Below are positions 1-60,656 of a stretch of 64,000 nucleotides of DNA, piece by piece. Each line of letters opens with the position of its first letter. The stretch's first letter is position 1. A program made the position numbers and the translations under genes. The notes beneath the pieces are model-generated. The model saw only the letters and a list, made by a program, of their open reading frames with translations, ran no database searches and had not been told where the DNA came from. The DNA comes from a phage, in sequence record PX880099.1. The stretch is one strand, 5' to 3'.

Positions 1-1167
1 ACGATCATATTGGATATAAACTCGCTCCTCGGTTACTTGCACGTCTACCACATTTTTAAATGTGTAGGTCTGTTGCGTAGTGTAGAGGACACGAACGACA
101 CTCTTCTTACCTACCGGAGGCTTCTTACGAGGCTTACGGTAACGTGGTTTAGGGTTGTTAGTTGGAAGCCAACCAACAATATCCCGATCATATCCAACAT
201 GACCCCAAGTGAAATGCGTAGCCGATCCACTATCCGTAGTTCCGTCACGAAAGAGAACTTCTACGTGACCACCACAAGGGCGGTGTCCACCATTATTATA
301 GTTGTATTTTGCCGTGCGCGGGAGAATGAAGTATTCTTTAATCGCCCACTCTTCCAGATTGTCGATATTCCAAGTGAATACTGTTCCCTTAGCAACATCT
401 GTTTGACCATTGTTGAAGCGAACCTGCACGAAATCTTCCGAAGGCATAACACCTGTGTTCGGCAGATATTCAAATGCAGTATCTTCCGCTACAAACTGTT
501 CTTCCTCTTGCTCCTCAATACTTGGCACAGGCGCAGCTTCATCGTATTTCGCAGCAAACATATTTTTAAATTCTTGAGCCGTGACTTCTACAAGGCCGCG
601 ATCACCAGTAGCAGCAGAGTGTGGGCGTGGTAAATCCCCAACTTCAATATGCATTGCATCTAAGCCTGCTTGACGATCAAAGAAGATAACCTTGCGGAAT
701 TGTTTATCTTTATATTGTGGCAGTTCATACATACTTGGATCGATTGTCTTCAAACGTTCAGCATCTTCTGGCTTCCAGAAGCTTTTACCTGTTGCAAATC
801 TAAAGTCTACCAGTAGTTTAACAACATCTCCTAATGATAAACTATCTGCATCTACGAAAACGTCTTCGATTCCCAATAACCCTGATTTCTTAAGAATCAA
901 ATCTAACATGTAACCTCCTGTGGTTTGTTCTGCGTCTGGATAACGATCAACACTGGTGCTGGTTACACCGTTTATTTCACCAGTGGAGGCATTGTAGGAA
1001 ATATATGGGAAGGTCATATCGTTCATTGCAAAATCACCTGAACAGGTTGGATCATCTTCTCCCTCCCAGCCATACACCTTCACAATACCTTCACACAATT
1101 TGTCATACACACCAGCGCGACGTGCTGCTTCAGCAACTTCCTGTTTACGGGCAAATTTATTAATCAT
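1..1167 (-). CDS. hypothetical protein, N-terminal 389 codons (gene continues beyond window start)
   Basis: Reverse-strand frame open from ATG at 1165-1167 (AGGAGG upstream) to the window edge, translated by hand without a stop; absent from ORF track because no in-window stop. Confidence 0.55.
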   Translation of the reverse strand, partial: MINKFARKQEVAEAARRAGVYDKLCEGIVKVYGWEGEDDPTCSGDFAMNDMTFPYISYNASTGEINGVTSTSVDRYPDAEQTTGGYMLDLILKKSGLLGIEDVFVDADSLSLGDVVKLLVDFRFATGKSFWKPEDAERLKTIDPSMYELPQYKDKQFRKVIFFDRQAGLDAMHIEVGDLPRPHSAATGDRGLVEVTAQEFKNMFAAKYDEAAPVPSIEEQEEEQFVAEDTAFEYLPNTGVMPSEDFVQVRFNNGQTDVAKGTVFTWNIDNLEEWAIKEYFILPRTAKYNYNNGGHRPCGGHVEVLFRDGTTDSGSATHFTWGHVGYDRDIVGWLPTNNPKPRYRKPRKKPPVGKKSVVRVLYTTQQTYTFKNVVDVQVTEERVYIQYDR

Positions 1168-10852: not shown

Positions 10853-11209
10853 ATGAAAAAACTAATCTTAGCCACATTGCTGGCTACCGTAAGCTTCACC
10901 ACTTACGCTCAAAAATTTGTAGCAGTTAAAACAGATATTGGTAAAGATGTTGTGATCACAGGCAACAAGTTTTACTATACACCTGGGAATGGTGTTCTAG
11001 AAGAGTGTAAAGATGTTGAGGCATATACGGGAAAAGAAGATAACACGGAACGTCCTTTTTATTCGATTATAGCTACTTGCAAAAATGAAATAGTAGCTAT
11101 TAAACAATACAAAGATGCCCCTGGAGGAGAATACTTATTAGTCAAGAATATTAAGAGTGAAAAAACTGCAAAGTTTACAGTAATTATTTTAAAAGGAGAA
11201 ACGTTCTAA
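10853..11209 (+). CDS. secreted protein with signal peptide
   Basis: MKKLILATLLATVSFTTYA signal-like N-terminus; SD GGAGGGAAG. Confidence 0.55.
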   Translation: MKKLILATLLATVSFTTYAQKFVAVKTDIGKDVVITGNKFYYTPGNGVLEECKDVEAYTGKEDNTERPFYSIIATCKNEIVAIKQYKDAPGGEYLLVKNIKSEKTAKFTVIILKGETF

Positions 11210-12348
11210 TGAAATACACTATTTTTGGAGATGTAGCTGTTGTAAATAAGGAATATGGCGTTGAAGCTAATAAACTTCCTGCTGGAGTTTGGGTTGTCAA
11301 CTGCGATCCGCACGGTAACTACTCTTTAGTGCGTGGTGAAAGTTTCTCTCTTCCGAACACTCTTTATGGGGAAACTAAAGATCGCGCCGCACATGTTATT
11401 AAAACATTTGCTCGTCGTAGTAAAGAAGGTAAAAATACTGGGGTGTTACTGACAGGGACAAAAGGCAGTGGTAAGACGATGTTAGCTAAACTTATTAGCA
11501 TGTCTCTAATGTCCACAGAAGGTTTAGGTATTCCAACCATTTTGGTTACACAGCCTTACACAGATGCTGGCTTCTTAGAATTTATGAGTAAAATTACAGA
11601 TCGTGCTGTTGTTTTATTTGACGAATTTGATAAAGTGTACGCTAAGAAAGAAGATCAGGAAGCACTGTTGACCTTGTTGGATGGAACAGGAAGTGGGAAT
11701 AAACTTTACATCCTCACTAAAAATAGTGGTTATATCTCGGAATATTTTGTAAACCGTCCTAGTCGTATCTACTACAGTTTCAATTACGATAAACTGTCTA
11801 GTGAAACTATGTTAGATTACTTGGATAAGAACTTGGTAAATAAAAAGCACGTAGATAACTTCCAACGTTTATGGGATGTTAGCACAGAGTTGTCTTTCGA
11901 TGTTATTCAAGGCATTGTAGAAGAATTGAATTTCTATCCAAAAATGACTTTTAAAGAATGTCTTGAAATGATGGGTATTTCTTTAGGGAACGATGCTAAA
12001 TGGAATGTGGCTTCTATCGTAGCTAATGGCAAAACCTTGAAGGTGAATTGGATCAATAACTGGCACGACTTCACCCCTACTAAGTTTTTGTCGGGCGCTT
12101 GTTCCCTGAACATCTATCTACAAAGTTTGAAAGATGATGAAGTGGAAGCAATGGAAACCAACAGTTATGTTATCCTGGATGAAGATGGTGATCCACATAT
12201 TGATCTATGTGCAACGGCTGATGGTCTAACTTGTGATCTGATTGAAGGTGGTAAGATTCTGGTTATGAGCACTACACCAGGAAACACTTTGCGAGTGGTG
12301 CTGGAGCCTGTAACACAACGTTCCACTACACTTGGTAGCGTGTTCTAA
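11209..12348 (+). CDS. AAA-type ATPase
   Basis: 379 aa; Walker A GTKGSGKT, Walker B VVLFDEFDK. Confidence 0.6.
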   Translation: MKYTIFGDVAVVNKEYGVEANKLPAGVWVVNCDPHGNYSLVRGESFSLPNTLYGETKDRAAHVIKTFARRSKEGKNTGVLLTGTKGSGKTMLAKLISMSLMSTEGLGIPTILVTQPYTDAGFLEFMSKITDRAVVLFDEFDKVYAKKEDQEALLTLLDGTGSGNKLYILTKNSGYISEYFVNRPSRIYYSFNYDKLSSETMLDYLDKNLVNKKHVDNFQRLWDVSTELSFDVIQGIVEELNFYPKMTFKECLEMMGISLGNDAKWNVASIVANGKTLKVNWINNWHDFTPTKFLSGACSLNIYLQSLKDDEVEAMETNSYVILDEDGDPHIDLCATADGLTCDLIEGGKILVMSTTPGNTLRVVLEPVTQRSTTLGSVF

Positions 12349-54614: not shown

Positions 54615-55205
54615 TCAAATTATTAACGAAACCGCATGACTAAATCTTGGTTCAGATATAACCTCTGCTACAGTCACATATGTATCGTGCAGCCAAAAAG
54701 ATTCTACTCTACAAACACAAATACCGTTGATAATGAAATCTACACAGGATTTATTATTTTCGCACACCTGTTGACTATAAACAACCCCTAAAGAGTCATA
54801 AAGTGATCTCACTGTTGCTATCATTTCATCTGTTTCGTCTTCCTGTGAAACAAAGAAAACGAATACAGACAAGTTATTAGCGAAAGTATTGCTATTCTCT
54901 ACTTCAACCGACTTACAAGGTAAAAAGGAGTAATATTTACCGCTAGGTATCAATTTCGCCTCAACCTGGTTAAGTATGCTTTGAGATGGTTTTGTTACAT
55001 AAAAAAGATTTTCTGTTGGGTTTTCAACATTACTCCTTACTATGCAACGAGTGGGGTTCGAAGGATCAAAAACATGATCGAAATCGACACACACAGGTAA
55101 GTTAACAACTTTAAACTTTTTGCTAAGAATGCTTACTGCTGTAAAAATCAAACCAGCATTTATTTTGCCAGTGAAAGTTGAACGCATAACTACTCCTCGG
55201 ATCAT
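54615..55205 (-). CDS. hypothetical protein
   Basis: 196 aa ORF, ATGA-coupled. Confidence 0.5.
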   Translation of the reverse strand: MIRGVVMRSTFTGKINAGLIFTAVSILSKKFKVVNLPVCVDFDHVFDPSNPTRCIVRSNVENPTENLFYVTKPSQSILNQVEAKLIPSGKYYSFLPCKSVEVENSNTFANNLSVFVFFVSQEDETDEMIATVRSLYDSLGVVYSQQVCENNKSCVDFIINGICVCRVESFWLHDTYVTVAEVISEPRFSHAVSLII

Positions 55206-56837: not shown

Positions 56838-56861
56838 TTAAGAAATGCCCCCGAAGGGGCA
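56838..56861 (-). terminator. terminator hairpin GCCCC-TTCG-GGGGC (minus strand)
   Basis: Followed on minus strand by TTTCTTAAA. Confidence 0.5.
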
Positions 56862-56866
56862 GTTTG

Positions 56867-57559
56867 TTAAATAGCGGTTCCTTCGAAATCCGCCACATTT
56901 ACGAGATTAATATTTTCAGATTTAGAAGTCAAGTTGTTTTCTGCAACAGATTTTTCTTCAGTATCCGCCTCGTTACCTGCCACGTTACGAGGTTCTTCTT
57001 CACCGTAGGGATTACCGAATTTCAAAAGATTGATTAATTCTTCTTTGGAGAAGTTTTCTAAATCATCGTCTGTTAATTCAATAATCTCGTCTTGTTCTTC
57101 AATAAATGTTTCACCACCAGAAAAAGCATCTCGCTTTTTAGCTACTTCCATAGCCTGTTCTGGTGTTGCCCCTGCATCAAGAGCAGCTAAAGCAAAGTCT
57201 GACCCACTCCCCACTGCATAATATTCTTCATCAATCGGATATGCACGTGTTGGGTTGTTACCTTCGTGCAGGAAAATACGTCCGTCTGGATGAACAACAA
57301 GTGCAATAAACTCTTCATCTTCTTTGTCTGGATCAGAATGAATCATCAAACCAGGGACAGCATCGCGTGCTGCTTCGCACTGTAGATTTTGTTCAAACCA
57401 TTGAAAGAAAGAAAGCACGGAGGTCAGACGACCAGCACCACCTACAAGGTAATCTCCAATTTTTCGGACCTTTTTGAAATTAATAGAATCTACACGTCCA
57501 CCAAAAGTTACCTTACCATCACTCAAAATCTTATTTTTGGTTGCAATAATTGTCGTCAC
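56867..57559 (-). CDS. HslV/proteasome-beta-like Ntn hydrolase with acidic C-terminal extension
   Basis: N-terminus M-TTIIATKNKI (Thr right after initiator), KVRKIG, GGAGR, VGSGSDFALAA pattern; GTG start after GAGGAGG. Confidence 0.55.
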   Translation of the reverse strand: MTTIIATKNKILSDGKVTFGGRVDSINFKKVRKIGDYLVGGAGRLTSVLSFFQWFEQNLQCEAARDAVPGLMIHSDPDKEDEEFIALVVHPDGRIFLHEGNNPTRAYPIDEEYYAVGSGSDFALAALDAGATPEQAMEVAKKRDAFSGGETFIEEQDEIIELTDDDLENFSKEELINLLKFGNPYGEEEPRNVAGNEADTEEKSVAENNLTSKSENINLVNVADFEGTAI

Positions 57560-58059
57560 TATTCTTCCTCCTCTGTTAATGTTTTAAGAACCGCTTTCCC
57601 GCCATTCACATATTTGCAGATGTATTCTATCGCACGTAGTGTCTCTTTGTCAACAAAAATTTGATCAGACGTTGCGAGCGGGTTATTAAGAAGATCACTG
57701 CAATCACGAACAAGCAGTGCTTTCTTATTAAACAAATTACTTAAGAACAGTAACTTCGCCTCTTCTTCTGTTATATGCAGAAGGCTAGGATCGGAGCCAG
57801 CTATTCCTATTATACAATCAAACAAGCTTTCTTTACTATCAGAAAGTTCTTGAAAATGGTTTAAAAGCCAATCTTCTCCTAGACACCAACATTTAAACAT
57901 TTCCAGTTTATCTCGGAGGGTCATATTCTCTAAAGTAAGAGCAATCTCTTTTTCAATATGGTTTACACAAATTTGACGAAATTCGTTAGGTTTTACGAGT
58001 CCCGTTTGATAGCACTCATCTATACCGCTTCTTCCGATAGCTATTGTTGCTACACCCAT
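57559..58059 (-). CDS. hypothetical protein
   Basis: ATG (MGVATIA) after AAGGAGG; track start is TTG. Confidence 0.5.
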   Translation of the reverse strand: MGVATIAIGRSGIDECYQTGLVKPNEFRQICVNHIEKEIALTLENMTLRDKLEMFKCWCLGEDWLLNHFQELSDSKESLFDCIIGIAGSDPSLLHITEEEAKLLFLSNLFNKKALLVRDCSDLLNNPLATSDQIFVDKETLRAIEYICKYVNGGKAVLKTLTEEEE

Positions 58060-58094
58060 CAATCCTCCTTATAAATGGCTTCCCTGCCATGTTA

Positions 58095-58853
58095 TTAAAT
58101 AAACACTTCAGTAATCAGTTTAGACAAACGTCCACGTTTATTATCGTCCGTTGTCAGTTCAACGTATCCAATAAAATCTACAATTGGCTCACGAACACCT
58201 TCTTCATTTTCTGGATACAAAAGTTCCAAAATTTGATGCAGACCATTGCTACGTTTTTTAATTGCATATGTCTGGCGAACATCGCCTAATACAATAACAT
58301 GCGTATTAATACCTGCACGTTCAATAAGAAGTTTAAGTGTTTCTGTTGACATAAGTTGTGCTTCGTCAATAATGACGATTGTATTATCCAGGGTAGCCCC
58401 CAACAAATAGTTAGGAATATTCAATTCGATCTTACCTGATCCAATATCGTTTTCCAATTTGTTGGCTGTCATGAATTGCTGGAAAATACGTTTTGTAGAT
58501 TCATAGTGTGCTGCTAGTTTATCTGTTTTATCCCCAGACAAGAAACCAATCTGGTCATCTCCGACTTCAGTAGGGTTCTTAATAAAAAGTAGTTTACGGA
58601 AGTCTCCTGAACGAAGCATCTGCAAAGCTTTCCATAAAGCAACAGAGGTTTTACCAGTCCCTGCCGGAGCATTTACAACAGTCAGATCATTCCAAATCAT
58701 ACTTTGAACAATCTTATTTTGGTCCCCTTCAGGCATAAATTCATCTAAACGGTAATCGTCATTACCTACCGCTTTTGCTGCATAACGGCTTTCAATCTTT
58801 GCTGAATTAGCCAGTTTCTGCCGTTGTGTTTTAGCTGCGGTTTTATTTCCCAT
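58095..58853 (-). CDS. phoH: PhoH-like ATPase
   Basis: APAGTGKTSVAL Walker A, IVIIDEAQLMS Walker B; ATG (MGNKTAA) after AAGGAG; track N-terminal extension overlaps a terminator hairpin. Confidence 0.8.
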   Translation of the reverse strand: MGNKTAAKTQRQKLANSAKIESRYAAKAVGNDDYRLDEFMPEGDQNKIVQSMIWNDLTVVNAPAGTGKTSVALWKALQMLRSGDFRKLLFIKNPTEVGDDQIGFLSGDKTDKLAAHYESTKRIFQQFMTANKLENDIGSGKIELNIPNYLLGATLDNTIVIIDEAQLMSTETLKLLIERAGINTHVIVLGDVRQTYAIKKRSNGLHQILELLYPENEEGVREPIVDFIGYVELTTDDNKRGRLSKLITEVFI

Positions 58854-58867
58854 AGTAGCACTCCTTT

Positions 58868-58886
58868 TAGAAGGGGCCGAAGCCCC
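58868..58886 (-). terminator. hairpin GGGGC-CGAA-GCCCC downstream of lysozyme gene
   Basis: Identical stem-loop to 46759-46781. Confidence 0.45.
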
Positions 58887-58890
58887 TTTA

Positions 58891-59391
58891 TTAGTTGTAA
58901 GCATCTAAAGTTCCAGAAGTCAGAACTTTAATTACTCGTTCAGCACGGTTTGGCGTCTGGCTATACCATCGGCTTTTACGCATGTTTTTACCTGCTTGAG
59001 TATAATATGCATTGCTGATTAAAGTCAAGCTATTTTGAAACCCTTCAGCACCTTTTAACCCCAACTGGAAAACCATGTTGATTATTCCCAATTTACGAGT
59101 ATCACTAACCTTATCATAGATTGGTGATAAGATAGTACTGTTTTTTATGTCTCTCTTCACTTTTGCAACATCGTCAGCAAAGATTTGACGGGCTTCTTTT
59201 TCTGTGATAACTCCATTAGTCTTACGACCAAGAAGATTATCTAAGATTTGAATAGCCTTTGCTTTATCTTTTATTTTAGTCAGAAGGTGTCCTATGCCGA
59301 CTGTCCAATAACCAAGATGGTCTTGATAAACAGTAAGCTTCAGTCCTTCATCGACTCGTAGCATATCAAACTCATCTACTACTTTAGCCAT
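58891..59391 (-). CDS. T4-type lysozyme (endolysin, GH24-like)
   Basis: LRVDEGLKLTVYQDHLGYWTVGIGHLLTK, INMVFQLG, KSRWYSQTPNRAERV closely parallel T4 lysozyme. Confidence 0.85.
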   Translation of the reverse strand: MAKVVDEFDMLRVDEGLKLTVYQDHLGYWTVGIGHLLTKIKDKAKAIQILDNLLGRKTNGVITEKEARQIFADDVAKVKRDIKNSTILSPIYDKVSDTRKLGIINMVFQLGLKGAEGFQNSLTLISNAYYTQAGKNMRKSRWYSQTPNRAERVIKVLTSGTLDAYN

Positions 59392-59553: not shown

Positions 59554-59814
59554 TTACTCCGCAATTTGAGCCATGAGATCACGCAGTTCGGTAAAACCGC
59601 CTACGTATGTTACCTCCCCGTTCACTTCAGACAGAATTTGTGGAAATGTGCGTGGAGGAACTCCGGTAAGATCAACAACTGTTTTAGTCATTGATTCTAA
59701 ATCATAGTCTTGGTCAAGACTTAAATATTCAAACTGTTTATTGCGCATAGTCAATAGTTGTTTTGACATTTCACAAAATTGACAGTTAGGTTTACCAAAA
59801 ATTACAAATTCCAT
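59554..59814 (-). CDS. nrdC: glutaredoxin-like protein (NrdC-type)
   Basis: 86 aa; CQFC active-site CxxC, GGF..LR C-terminal region. Confidence 0.7.
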   Translation of the reverse strand: MEFVIFGKPNCQFCEMSKQLLTMRNKQFEYLSLDQDYDLESMTKTVVDLTGVPPRTFPQILSEVNGEVTYVGGFTELRDLMAQIAE

Positions 59815-60656
59815 TACCTCTCCTTATTAAGTAATACTGCTAAAGACTGTTCAATACCTTTATTTAAATCTGATTTTGTAAGATAGTGACTGGTTACTAG
59901 TTGTGACTTCACCGGACGTGCTGCTGGAGCATTATAGGTTGAAGCTGATACCGCCGATATCTTAACAGGTTCTGGCATCTGTGTCAAGATCTTTTCCGCA
60001 AACTCCGCCCAAGAAATAAGATGGCTTCCTGCAAAATGGTAAGTCTTAACAGACCTTGACCAACCTGTTTTTAATACTTCAAAAATAGCTTCTGCTAAAT
60101 CTGGAGCATATGTTGGACAAGAGAACTGATCAGCAACAATAATAAAATCACGTTGTCCATCATTATAGCGAGACAACATGGTTTTTAGAAAGTTATTTCC
60201 AAATTCGCTATATACCGAGGCTGTTCGAATAATATATGCATTTGGGTTAACTCCTCGCACCATTTTTTCACCAAGTTCTTTCGTATACCCATAATTGTTT
60301 ATTGGGTTAGGTGTAGTATCTTCAAAAATAGGATGAGAATAATTAAAAATATAGTCTGTGGAAATATGCACAAAATCAATTTTAAGTTTGCTGCACACTG
60401 CCGCAATATTTGCAGGGCCATAAGCATTAACAGCCAAAGCAGTAGCAAAATCTTGTTCGGCTTTATCTACAGCCGTATAAGCGGCGCAATTAATAACACC
60501 ATCTACATAATCTTCAATAATAGCGTTTCGCACAGCTTCAAAATTTGTAATATCTACACGTTCTTTAGGATAAATTAAAGATACATTTGCAGGGGCAACT
60601 TTACGTAAAGCTTGTCCCAGTTGTCCATTACCACCCAATACCAAATATGTTAGCAT
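59814..60656 (-). CDS. rmlD: dTDP-4-dehydrorhamnose reductase
   Basis: LVLGGNGQLG Rossmann N-terminus, overall RfbD/RmlD pattern; last gene of the four-gene operon. Confidence 0.85.
   Translation of the reverse strand: MLTYLVLGGNGQLGQALRKVAPANVSLIYPKERVDITNFEAVRNAIIEDYVDGVINCAAYTAVDKAEQDFATALAVNAYGPANIAAVCSKLKIDFVHISTDYIFNYSHPIFEDTTPNPINNYGYTKELGEKMVRGVNPNAYIIRTASVYSEFGNNFLKTMLSRYNDGQRDFIIVADQFSCPTYAPDLAEAIFEVLKTGWSRSVKTYHFAGSHLISWAEFAEKILTQMPEPVKISAVSASTYNAPAARPVKSQLVTSHYLTKSDLNKGIEQSLAVLLNKER

Follow-up and report, generated by a model that had tools for sequence, protein, structure and literature searches.

The stretch of DNA analysed here (64,000 nucleotides of an E. coli phage, sequence record PX880099.1; hereafter the window) is from a phAPEC8-like Phapecoctavirus, and encodes a peptidase of the proteasome/HslV superfamily with a C-terminal tail. 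This tail appears to be a separate, portable module on an interchangeable peptidase chamber, because the same tail is carried by ClpP-family serine peptidases encoded in the same syntenic slot of other phages. On balance, the protein is probably a non-structural, chambered Thr1 peptidase that is independent of HslU, with a tail that recruits or targets something. As an annotation the gene is ordinary: it is 99–100% identical to genes annotated as “peptidase HslV family” (PHROG 1040), the annotation is already present in RefSeq, the gene is conserved at 99% in more than 60 Phapecoctavirus genomes, and proteasome-like genes are common in phages (46 proteasome-fold structural clusters in BFVD; 234 GenBank phage records that contain this branch). 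The portable tail is moderately interesting, and its sharing between PPH-type and ClpP-type phage peptidases appears, on the comparisons below, to be new here. Literature on the function of phage HslV/PPH, phAPEC8 gp175 and ICP1 gp211 yielded only annotation and one RNA-seq table.

The start of the gene is well supported: no possible start codon lies between an in-frame stop and the GTG (57559-57557), which shares one base with the TAG stop of the upstream ORF (TAGTG), follows a strong Shine-Dalgarno sequence (Table 1), and gives the N-terminus MTTI that is found in all full-length relatives. The overlap, together with a Shine-Dalgarno sequence inside the upstream ORF, points to translational coupling of the peptidase to that ORF.

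Table 1. Features of the peptidase gene and its surroundings in the window (nucleotide positions unless residues are named).
Feature	Location	Strand	Remarks
Complete CDS of the proteasome-like peptidase	56867..57559	-	230 aa plus stop (TAA/TAG-type) at 56867-56869; corresponds to phAPEC8 gp175, “peptidase HslV family”
Predicted catalytic Ntn-hydrolase core	57095..57559	-	residues 1-155; Thr1 codon ACG at 57554-57556
Core landmarks (precursor numbering)	Asp14, Lys30, GGAG 40-43, GSG 117-119	-	aligned with HslV D17, K33, G45, S124
Acidic “pore-loop” segment DPDKEDEE	57311..57334	-	residues 76-83; aligns with the HslV Arg86/Arg89/Lys90 segment, here K/E/E
Proximal tail	56999..57094	-	residues 156-187; acidic linker and conserved two-helix motif ELTDDDLENFSKEELINLLKFG
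Distal tail	56870..56998	-	residues 188-230; poorly conserved, acidic, predicted disordered (pLDDT <50 at 189-214)
Shine-Dalgarno sequence GAGGAGGA of the peptidase	57566..57573	-	6 nt upstream of GTG, within the end of the upstream ORF
Upstream coupled ORF (putative coupling)	57559..58062	-	167 aa; phAPEC8 gp174, PHROG 14834; all-alpha
PhoH-like P-loop ATPase	58095..58904	-	constant syntenic neighbour of the tailed peptidase
Sigma-70-like promoter match TTGACA-18-TAGAAT	57624..57653	-	11/12; in the upstream ORF, ~65 nt ahead of the peptidase start
Terminator-like GC hairpin TGCCCC-TTCG-GGGGCA, then TTTCTT	56846..56861	-	starts 5 nt past the peptidase stop; consensus match only

Homology of the peptidase to the proteasome/HslV superfamily is far above chance, as judged by its matches to Pfam PF00227 (25.6 bits, cut-off 22.4), to PHROG 1040 (E 1.6e-63), and to HslV structures in the PDB, which are the best PDB matches at the sequence level (E 4.9e-9). 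The AlphaFold2 model (mean pLDDT 83.6; core >90) and its Foldseek matches give an alpha-beta-beta-alpha sandwich fold; the best PDB matches of the model are BPH, HslV and proteasome beta subunits (20S beta), with E ~1e-10 and TM per target of up to 0.69. The N-terminus reads M-TTIIATK, with Thr directly after the initiator Met and no propeptide, and the Gly-rich segment GGAGR (residues 40-44) aligns with GFAGG of HslV, as GSGS (117-120) does with GSGG. T2, T3, D14, K30 and G117-S118-G119 (precursor numbering) are invariant among 33 sequences, and GGAG 40-43 does not vary in relatives either; likewise, the equivalents of Thr1, Asp17, Lys33, Gly45 and Ser124 are invariant in 26 relatives, and 100% conserved in comparison with E. 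coli HslV. An earlier reading of the sequence alone had proposed an HslV/proteasome-like Ntn hydrolase with a threonine at position 1 after initiator removal and with aligned Gly-rich motifs, and had named structure prediction and comparison with HslV as the check; the profile matches, the predicted structure and the catalytic residues bear out this proposal. We infer that the protein would be a catalytically competent N-terminal-threonine enzyme of the superfamily, and that it would assemble into a ring-shaped, self-compartmentalised particle, as its relatives do.

The peptidase is not HslV proper, nor an HslV orthologue: its scores against the NCBIfam HslV equivalog models are low (NF003964, 32.2 bits, cut-off 137; TIGR03692, 31.4 bits, cut-off 157.75), helix H2 is missing, other residues stand at Lys28 and in place of the basic pore cluster, and no phage unfoldase tracks the gene. 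In the AlphaFold2 model, helix H1 comprises residues 45-67, and residues 68-84 are coil, with no helix H2. The pocket of HslV that receives the C-tail of HslU involves helices H1 and H2 and residues Phe54, Phe57, Ala79, Lys80 and Gln114 (PMC6429459); of the corresponding positions in the peptidase, Ala79 and Lys80 are replaced by Met and Ile in coil, Gln114 by Tyr, and only Phe57 is retained. The basic cluster Arg86/Arg89/Lys90, which is required for the activity of HslV (PMC5777263, citing Ramachandran 2002), aligns with an acidic segment (Table 1). At the position of HslV Lys28, the peptidase family has S, T, Q, N, D or A, and never a basic residue. Lys28 is presumably also important for HslU docking, as in the H. 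influenzae HslUV structure. Based on an alignment at ~25% identity and on the predicted structure, the HslU-docking and pore features appear not to be conserved, so that the assay with host HslU suggested by the sequence-only reading would be unlikely to be positive; stimulation of the peptidase by host HslU is unlikely. For the window, the practical value of the comparison is that it corrects the expectation of a peptidase working with host HslU. No hslU annotation was found in the phAPEC8 genome, and no hslU lies beside the peptidase, a result that concerns the phage's own genes and not the use of host HslU. The phAPEC8 annotation includes a single AAA gene (PF00004); the phage AAA ATPase gp014 was rejected as a dedicated unfoldase, as its phyletic spread does not follow that of the peptidase.

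These features bear directly on the possibility that the protein is a surrogate HslV that redirects or poisons host HslUV, either by docking onto the HslU of the host or by forming mixed assemblies with its HslV. The host, E. coli, encodes HslU, the top sequence-level PDB matches are HslV structures, and the TT N-terminus and the equivalents of HslV Arg35 and Phe57 are conserved (in the alignment at ~25% identity). Nevertheless, a surrogate role is unlikely in view of equivalog scores far under the cut-offs, a model that lacks the helix that carries the HslU-pocket residues Ala79 and Lys80 (PMC6429459), a Lys28 position that is never basic, and the exchange of the activity-required basic pore cluster for acidic residues; moreover, the same tail occurs on ClpP-type cores, for which HslV-like docking of HslU is impossible. 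The proximal tail sequence D-D-D-L-E-N-F is loosely similar to the C-terminal activating peptide of HslU, D-E-D-L-S-R-F-I-L (PMC6429459), but the likeness is internal, with no free C-terminus, and the Phe is not conserved in relatives. Mimicry of the activating C-terminal peptide of HslU by the tail itself was rejected on the grounds that the DxDLxxF motif is short, internal and unconserved in relatives.

The absence of helix H2 is the hallmark of PPH and RPC (PMC8665760, Fuchs et al. 2021), and in this respect the model of the peptidase has features of the phage PPH clade. Like PPH, it is a phage-encoded group I (HslV-derived) homolog with no propeptide, with conserved Thr1/Asp17/Lys33, and with no H2; unlike PPH, which has ~140 residues and no extension (PMC8665760), it combines a core of ~155 residues with a tail of 75 residues. 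Tail-less relatives of ~140 aa (P0081-P0083) were recovered by the same search as the other relatives. In its published description, RPC resembles PPH and carries a C-terminal extension; the extension of the window's protein fits this, but RPC is listed for Proteobacteria only, and as non-phage (PMC8665760), and in size the protein matches neither PPH nor RPC exactly. The sharing of a tail with ClpP-type peptidases is absent from that study. HslV (ClpQ), at ~26% identity, shares its fold, its catalytic residues and its GxAG and GSG motifs with the window's protein, as well as a TT N-terminus that removal of Met exposes, whereas it differs in having H2, Lys28 and the basic Arg86/Arg89/Lys90, and no C-terminal tail. 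The Betaproteobacterial proteasome homolog BPH (PDB 5OVS; PMC5777263) is the top Foldseek match of the model, and resembles the window's protein in its HslV-derived chamber, acidic pore loop, absence of an unfoldase partner and of a propeptide, and loss of HslU-interface residues (PMC5777263). By contrast, BPH retains H2, has a long pore loop and no C-terminal tail, and is cellular; in sequence, the similarity between the two is marginal (phmmer E ~1). Because this close structural match is proteolytically inert in standard assays (PMC5777263), activity of the phage peptidase is not to be assumed.

The sequence-only reading called the last 70 residues highly acidic, which is a fair description: they contain 26% D+E, have a net charge of -13, and lie at the 98.6th percentile of acidity for 70-aa segments in the long ORFs of the window, without forming a poly-D/E tract. 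The most acidic stretch comprises residues 151-170 (net -9). The motif of the proximal tail is modelled as helices at 164-169 and 172-181 (pLDDT ~88-90). The distal tail is net-negative in 72 of 73 homologs despite sequence drift; it is variable and lineage-specific, and is swapped for whole domains in relatives. The tail in the window keeps the proximal motif only, and lacks two parts of the long tails, a distal beta-rich domain and a terminal pair of helices, so inferences from long tails transfer only partly to it. The distal ends of long tails look SAP-like by eye, but a nucleic-acid-binding motif of SAP/HeH type is unsupported, as SAP, HeH and Rho_N gave no Pfam match in the tails at E up to 1. 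Separately, the similarity of the proximal motif to the first helix of HNH_repeat, from homing endonucleases (P0089), is only weak.

A profile built from PPH tails only, searched against 1.84 billion proteins, gave 13 matches, including a ClpP-family protein (P0093; tail match at E 3.6e-7; PF00574 at 31.4 bits, cut-off 20.2), the last 144 residues of which are 36% identical (2e-17) to a PPH tail. The tail of this protein is 87% identical to that of Aeromonas phage 2L372D gp211, and the upstream gene is the same; the protein derives from a 1.7-kb metagenomic contig that is possibly chimeric. A second pair is free of this weakness, as both genomes are complete: the distal tail of the ClpP-type peptidase of PWH3a-P1 is 50% identical (1e-15) to that of the PPH-type peptidase of S4-7. 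The motif of ICP1 gp211 also matches the tail profile (E 3.6e-5). Overall, the conserved helix motif of the peptidase tail is found on ClpP-family peptidases as well, and in Vibrio and Aeromonas phages this extends to the entire tail. The tailed ClpP peptidases of large vibriophages (ICP1 gp211 / ADX89162; PWH3a-P1 VPIG_00091) carry the same C-terminal appendage as the window's protein, with the proximal helix motif, and have the whole distal tail in common with Vibrio/Aeromonas PPH-type proteins. However, their fold and nucleophile are unrelated to those of the window's protein (Ser-His-Asp ClpP core vs Thr1 Ntn core), and their tails include the distal beta-rich domain and terminal helix pair that it lacks. 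With two unrelated self-compartmentalising peptidases swapped under one tail in one slot, it is the tail, and not the chamber, that should define the partner or substrate.

The peptidase gene sits in a leftward replication/nucleotide-metabolism arm, near genes for lysozyme, PhoH, glutaredoxin and ribonucleotide reductase (RNR). In every tail-bearing locus examined, PhoH neighbours the tailed peptidase, whether this is PPH-type or ClpP-type. The slot lysozyme–PhoH–x–peptidase holds ClpP-type peptidases in ICP1, PWH3a-P1 and an Aeromonas-phage relative, and the vibriophage loci are like the window in the order RNR, lysozyme, PhoH, one or two small ORFs, peptidase, and then DNA ligase and rIIA. 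The synteny may be constant because these myoviruses descend from a common ancestor, and not for functional reasons. In the clade whose peptidases are at least 47% identical, gp174 occurs directly upstream of the peptidase; it was rejected as a universal partner, being confined to this closer clade. No structural neighbour of the gp174 model was found, and hhalign of gp174 against the upstream ORFs of ClpP-type phages gave E values of 0.2-0.45. Phage VEcB, a viable isolate, has an in-frame PhoH::peptidase fusion without Thr1, Asp17 and Lys33, so loss of the peptidase is tolerated; the peptidase is probably a dispensable accessory gene.

As the HslU-independent chambered peptidase that we favour, the enzyme would work without host HslU and without a phage unfoldase, and it would therefore act on peptides or on proteins that are unfolded and intrinsically disordered; in view of the acidic entrance and acidic tails, these substrates would probably be basic. 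The C-terminal tail would project outward as a recruitment or targeting appendage that specifies what the enzyme is brought to, with the chamber being swappable. The slot-equivalent ICP1 gp211 is classed as “Middle-late” together with nrdB, lysozyme and PhoH in the RNA-seq table; by analogy, the window's peptidase would be expressed middle-late with the nucleotide-metabolism genes, and would have a non-structural role.

A wider proposal, which we regard as tentative and rather doubtful, is that large myoviruses of Enterobacteria, Vibrio and Aeromonas share an unrecognised “tailed chamber peptidase” module, in which the appendage docks a common partner to give unfoldase-independent targeted proteolysis. 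Such a module would consist of a portable appendage (an acidic linker, the conserved helix motif, and a distal part that varies and is mostly acidic) mounted interchangeably on a Thr1 proteasome-type or a Ser ClpP-type chamber, and its gene would always lie just downstream of that for the PhoH-like ATPase. The appendage would be central to function, its common partner possibly being PhoH itself or basic nucleic-acid-binding proteins, and the targeted proteolysis would be phage-specific and take place during the DNA-replication phase. ICP1 is genetically tractable, and gp211 occupies the equivalent slot, which makes the question of the tail directly testable in that phage.

A specialised version of the favoured chambered peptidase would be a counter-defence or host-takeover protease, the tail of which binds one host protein, such as a basic DNA-binding protein or an immune protein, and delivers it into the chamber. 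The variable, lineage-specific distal tail and its replacement by whole domains in relatives, the tolerated loss of an accessory gene, and the suitability of acidic tails and an acidic pore for basic targets would all fit such a protease. We nevertheless consider this specialisation quite improbable, as no target, linkage to defence systems or literature was found for it, and the gene is nearly identical across Phapecoctavirus genomes, whereas anti-defence loci typically turn over fast.

Also very unlikely is a role as a maturation protease of the prohead or virion, with the enzyme directed into the procapsid by its C-terminal tail in the manner of HK97 gp4 and related proteases. Prohead proteases classically combine a peptidase core with a C-terminal tail for targeting (Duda et al. 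2013, as cited in PMC10945586), and the window's protein is like HK97 gp4 in having a core and then an appendage that would determine the location of the enzyme; in addition, the models that give the ClpP-type proteins of the equivalent slot their highest score are those for “ClpP-related head maturation protease” (67.6 bits, under the cut-off of 120), and there are PHROG matches as well. However, HK97 gp4 has a different fold and belongs to a different genome module, and the peptidase gene and the head module are ~30 kb apart and on opposite strands, the former amid nucleotide-metabolism genes. The head module has its own candidate adjoining the portal gene, the XkdF/S78_2-like phAPEC8 gp117 (44.9 bits). 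Similarly, the predicted capsid protease of ICP1 is a different protein, gp125, which belongs to the capsid operon and is late, whereas the tailed ClpP peptidase of that phage is middle-late, and VEcB is viable with the catalytic N-terminus deleted. Location in the head module, late expression and status as the sole capsid protease, which would mark a prohead protease, do not describe the window's peptidase. The suggestion in the sequence-only reading that the enzyme could process phage proteins is thus disfavoured for structural proteins, by the nucleotide-metabolism location and the separate XkdF-type candidate.

The least probable reading is that the protein acts as a ligase/transpeptidase in the way of connectase, as a specific amidase, or chiefly as a structural or regulatory ring: the proteasome family does include the ligase connectase (PMC8665760), and BPH is inert in standard assays (PMC5777263), but the proteasome-type catalytic set stays complete and invariant across widely differing sequences, which argues for retained hydrolytic Thr1 chemistry, and the swap with a ClpP serine peptidase under the same tail is most simply explained by chambered peptide-bond hydrolysis.

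Two signals flank the peptidase start and stop (Table 1). Sigma-70-like matches show no enrichment in the peptidase region, and the promoter match in the upstream ORF is weak evidence. The GC hairpin beyond the stop may mark the end of a transcription unit, or may serve in RNA stabilisation.

The peptidase is an HslV/proteasome-like Ntn hydrolase, as the sequence-only reading had proposed: it matches Pfam Proteasome PF00227 above the gathering score (25.6 vs 22.4 bits) and PHROG 1040 end to end (E 1.6e-63), and the closest solved-structure sequences are HslV proteins (T. maritima, 4.9e-9; E. coli, about 3e-5). An AlphaFold2 model based on 33 relatives (mean pLDDT 83.6; >90 for residues 1-155) returned as top PDB fold matches BPH (Betaproteobacterial proteasome homolog), HslV, and archaeal or eukaryotic 20S beta subunits (E about 1e-10), rather than a fold unrelated to Ntn hydrolases. 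Columns M1, T2, T3, I4, D14, K30 and G117-S118-G119 (precursor numbering) are invariant across the 33 relatives, down to 27% identity, and align with Thr1, Thr2, Asp17, Lys33 and Gly-Ser124-Gly of E. coli HslV (sequence checked against 1E94); Gly45 and Gly48 (HslV numbering) are likewise 100% conserved. Over the 2.5 kb around the gene, more than 60 genomes of Escherichia, Shigella and Klebsiella phages in the genus Phapecoctavirus (Stephanstirmvirinae) reach 99-99.8% identity. Among them is phAPEC8, in which RefSeq names the gene gp175, 'peptidase HslV family'; other depositors use 'ATP-dependent protease subunit HslV' and 'putative proteasome component'. The family assignment is therefore already public, as are the gene itself and the fact that phages encode proteasome homologs (PPH, phage proteasome homolog) (RefSeq, PHROGs, PMC8665760). 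BFVD holds 46 clusters of phage proteins with a proteasome fold, among which we found no characterised member.

The plus-strand reading of the interval is full of stops. On the minus strand, the GTG start is the first possible start beyond the in-frame upstream stop, its G also closes the TAG stop codon of the preceding ORF (TAGTG), and a Shine-Dalgarno sequence (GAGGAGGA) ends 6 nt upstream of it. The product begins M-TTIIATK and lacks a propeptide, consistent with the proposal of a threonine at position 1 once the initiator is removed; host methionine aminopeptidase, cleaving Met-Thr, would expose this nucleophile. A sigma-70-like promoter match (11 of 12) lies within the upstream ORF, and a GC hairpin (UUCG-type loop, T-rich tail) starts 5 nt past the stop; together these consensus matches would make the gene separately transcribable. 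The deposited annotation of the same gene in Escherichia phage vB_EcoM-Ro121c4YLVW (P0023; 159 aa, 'MIHSDPDK...') begins at internal Met72 and loses Thr1, Asp17 and Lys33, either because the start was mis-called or because the copy is frameshifted.

Coordinates of the features discussed (window positions unless another record is named)
Feature	Position	Strand	Basis
Peptidase CDS, 230 codons	56867..57559	minus	ORF translation
Peptidase GTG start	57559-57557	minus	
GC hairpin	56846-56861	minus	consensus match only
Sigma-70-like promoter	57624-57653	minus	consensus match only
AAA ATPase gene (phAPEC8 gp014)	11209-12345	plus	PF00004
196-aa ORF	54615-55205	minus	PHROG 4806
Rml-like cluster (and upstream)	59814-60656	minus	
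phAPEC8 gp117 (outside window)	L005:18670-19149		Peptidase_S78_2/XkdF
2L372D gp210	L002:3432-3983		PHROG 1040
2L372D gp211	L002:4001-4885		
gp210 of metagenomic relative	L008:135-686		
VEcB fusion ORF (P0066)	NC_052663.1 21498-22298		

Kinship with HslV could point to a surrogate HslV that depends on HslU, a role that we consider improbable. The peptidase scores 32 and 31 bits with the NCBIfam HslV equivalog models, whose cut-offs are 137 and 158. In the model, helix H1 (residues 45-67) is followed by 17 residues of coil and helix H2 is absent; among proteasome-like homologs, H2 is lacking only in PPH and in RPC, which are PPH-like with a C-terminal extension (Fuchs, Alva and Lupas, PMC8665760). 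The HslV pocket for the HslU C-terminus draws Ala79 and Lys80 from H2, and also includes Phe54, Phe57 and Gln114 (PMC6429459). At the aligned positions, the peptidase has M/I in coil for Ala79/Lys80, L for Phe54, F for Phe57 and Y for Gln114. HslV Lys28, which forms a salt bridge with the C-terminal carboxylate of HslU, is replaced by S, T, Q, N, D or A in 26/26 relatives. The basic pore cluster Arg86/Arg89/Lys90, required for HslV activity, is K/E/E here, within a conserved DPDKEDEE segment that recalls the acidic pore loop in BPH, a homolog without a partner unfoldase (PMC5777263). No hslU occurs in the complete phAPEC8 annotation. Based on these missing HslV-specific features, cooperation with host HslU is therefore unlikely. 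The sole classical AAA gene of phAPEC8, gp014 (29.9 bits), also occurs in Herelleviridae and other phages without the peptidase, is missing from peptidase-bearing Vibrio and Caulobacter phages, and has no link to the peptidase. Herelleviridae homologs of this ATPase are annotated as clamp-loader-like, and the ORF after gp014 (gp013, annotated 'endonuclease') encodes four CapR-homology domains and a treble-clef zinc finger.

The last 70 residues are highly acidic, as first noticed from the sequence, with 18 D/E and 5 K/R (net -13; 98.6th percentile of 70-residue windows in the long ORFs of the window); the most acidic stretch of the peptidase is residues 151-170 (net -9). The AlphaFold2 model places two short helices in the tail (residues 164-169 and 172-181, pLDDT about 88-90) and predicts residues 189-214 to be disordered. 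Relatives retain the motif '(E/D)-rich ... L-T-x-E-x-x-x-x-[FLM]-[ST]-[KR]-E-[EQ]-L-[LIV]-x-x-[LIM]', followed by 2 to 195 residues, with relatives of about 140 aa being tail-less. The window's peptidase has the proximal motif and the acidic disordered stretch, without the distal beta-rich domain or terminal helix pair of longer tails. Among tail-bearing homologs, the 22 residues preceding the motif have a net charge of -2 to -10, and the distal tail is net-negative in 72 of 73 (mean 26% D+E, 7% K+R). Tails that stay net-negative despite sequence drift indicate that acidity is itself a selected property.

A 37-position tail profile, built from PPH tails alone and searched against 1.84 billion representative proteins, retrieved 13 proteins at E up to 1e-3, mostly of the same family. 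The profile matches P0093 (E 3.6e-7), a ClpP-family serine peptidase (PF00574, 31.4 vs 20.2 bits; PHROG 'ATP-dependent protease', 1e-57) whose final 144 residues show 36% identity (E 2e-17) to one PPH-type tail and 87% identity to the tail of PPH-type gp211 of Aeromonas phage 2L372D, and whose upstream neighbour is an orthologue of 2L372D gp210. From these matches, a ClpP-type core appears to have replaced the proteasome-type core in a close relative of 2L372D, with tail and neighbour retained, although the 1.7-kb contig that carries P0093 could be chimeric. Complete genomes repeat the pattern: the distal tail of the PPH-type protein from Vibrio phage S4-7 is 50% identical over 72 residues (E 1e-15) to the ClpP-type protein from Vibrio phage PWH3a-P1, and the proximal motif of ClpP-type ICP1 gp211 scores E 3.6e-5 against the PPH tail profile in hhalign. 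Our literature search found no description of a conserved C-terminal module that PPH-type and ClpP-type peptidases share at a fixed genome position; this shared module is a lead of moderate interest that can be tested directly, above all in ICP1. In phage 2L372D, two proteasome-like genes lie side by side, tail-less gp210 (start MTCIIA; PHROG 1040 at 1e-25) and tailed gp211; a metagenomic relative retains gp210 beside a tailed gene with a ClpP core. Gp210 may form a hetero-oligomer with the tailed peptidase or divide labour with it.

Every tail-bearing locus examined (phAPEC8 and the window, two metagenomic relatives, Aeromonas 2L372D, Vibrio S4-7, PWH3a-P1 and ICP1) has the same order: ribonucleotide reductase and/or glutaredoxin, lysozyme, PhoH-like ATPase, one to a few small ORFs, and the tailed peptidase, often with DNA ligase and rIIA next. 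The peptidase in that slot is PPH-type or ClpP-type; thus, the two are positional analogues. The tail-less phiCbK homolog has a different gene context. The constant PhoH neighbourhood may reflect either functional linkage or inherited gene order.

The mechanism that we favour, with moderate confidence, is an unfoldase-free Thr1 peptidase that would self-assemble into a chamber, as HslV or BPH do, and act in the replication phase on peptides or on unfolded proteins, probably basic ones, with outward-facing acidic tails as putative recruitment or targeting arms. The fold, the catalytic set, the loss of HslV-specific features, the modular tail and the synteny are shown by the analysis; oligomer, activity, substrate class, tail function and timing are inferred from it. 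The gene lies in the leftward arm, among nucleotide-metabolism and replication genes, and RNA-seq of ICP1 classes gp211 ('ClpP') as Middle-late, as it does nrdB, lysozyme and PhoH (Table S1, PMC7567579); the ICP1 capsid operon is late, with its own predicted protease gp125. A prohead protease is quite unlikely: the head genes are about 30 kb away on the opposite strand, and phAPEC8 gp117, flanked by the portal gene and a scaffold-sized ORF, matches Peptidase_S78_2/XkdF (44.9 bits vs 24) and PHROG head-maturation proteases. Gp117 is thus a head-protease candidate separate from the peptidase, and its RefSeq name, 'DNA methyltransferase', probably mislabels a prohead protease. A specific anti-host or anti-defence protease, a special case of the chamber peptidase, is doubtful to a similar degree, and a non-degradative enzyme is very unlikely in a family with an invariant catalytic set.

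In the viable Escherichia phage VEcB, a natural deletion of ~1.2 kb has left one in-frame ORF joining PhoH residues 1 to ~113 to the peptidase from ~65, with loss of Thr1, Asp17, Lys33, half of PhoH and the whole homolog of gp174, the ORF directly upstream of the peptidase; close relatives have the three as separate genes. If the assembly is correct, this suggests that propagation does not require the trio and that its members can be lost together.

A few genes from the peptidase, an RmlD/RmlC/RmlA-like dTDP-sugar biosynthesis cluster (phAPEC8 gp166-gp169), together with glycosyltransferase genes elsewhere in the phage genome, suggests that the phage directs sugar modification of DNA or of the cell surface. 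The 196-aa ORF matches PHROG 4806 'histidyl tRNA synthetase' and is far below complete HisRS length; phAPEC8 has two such genes, gp181 and gp042.
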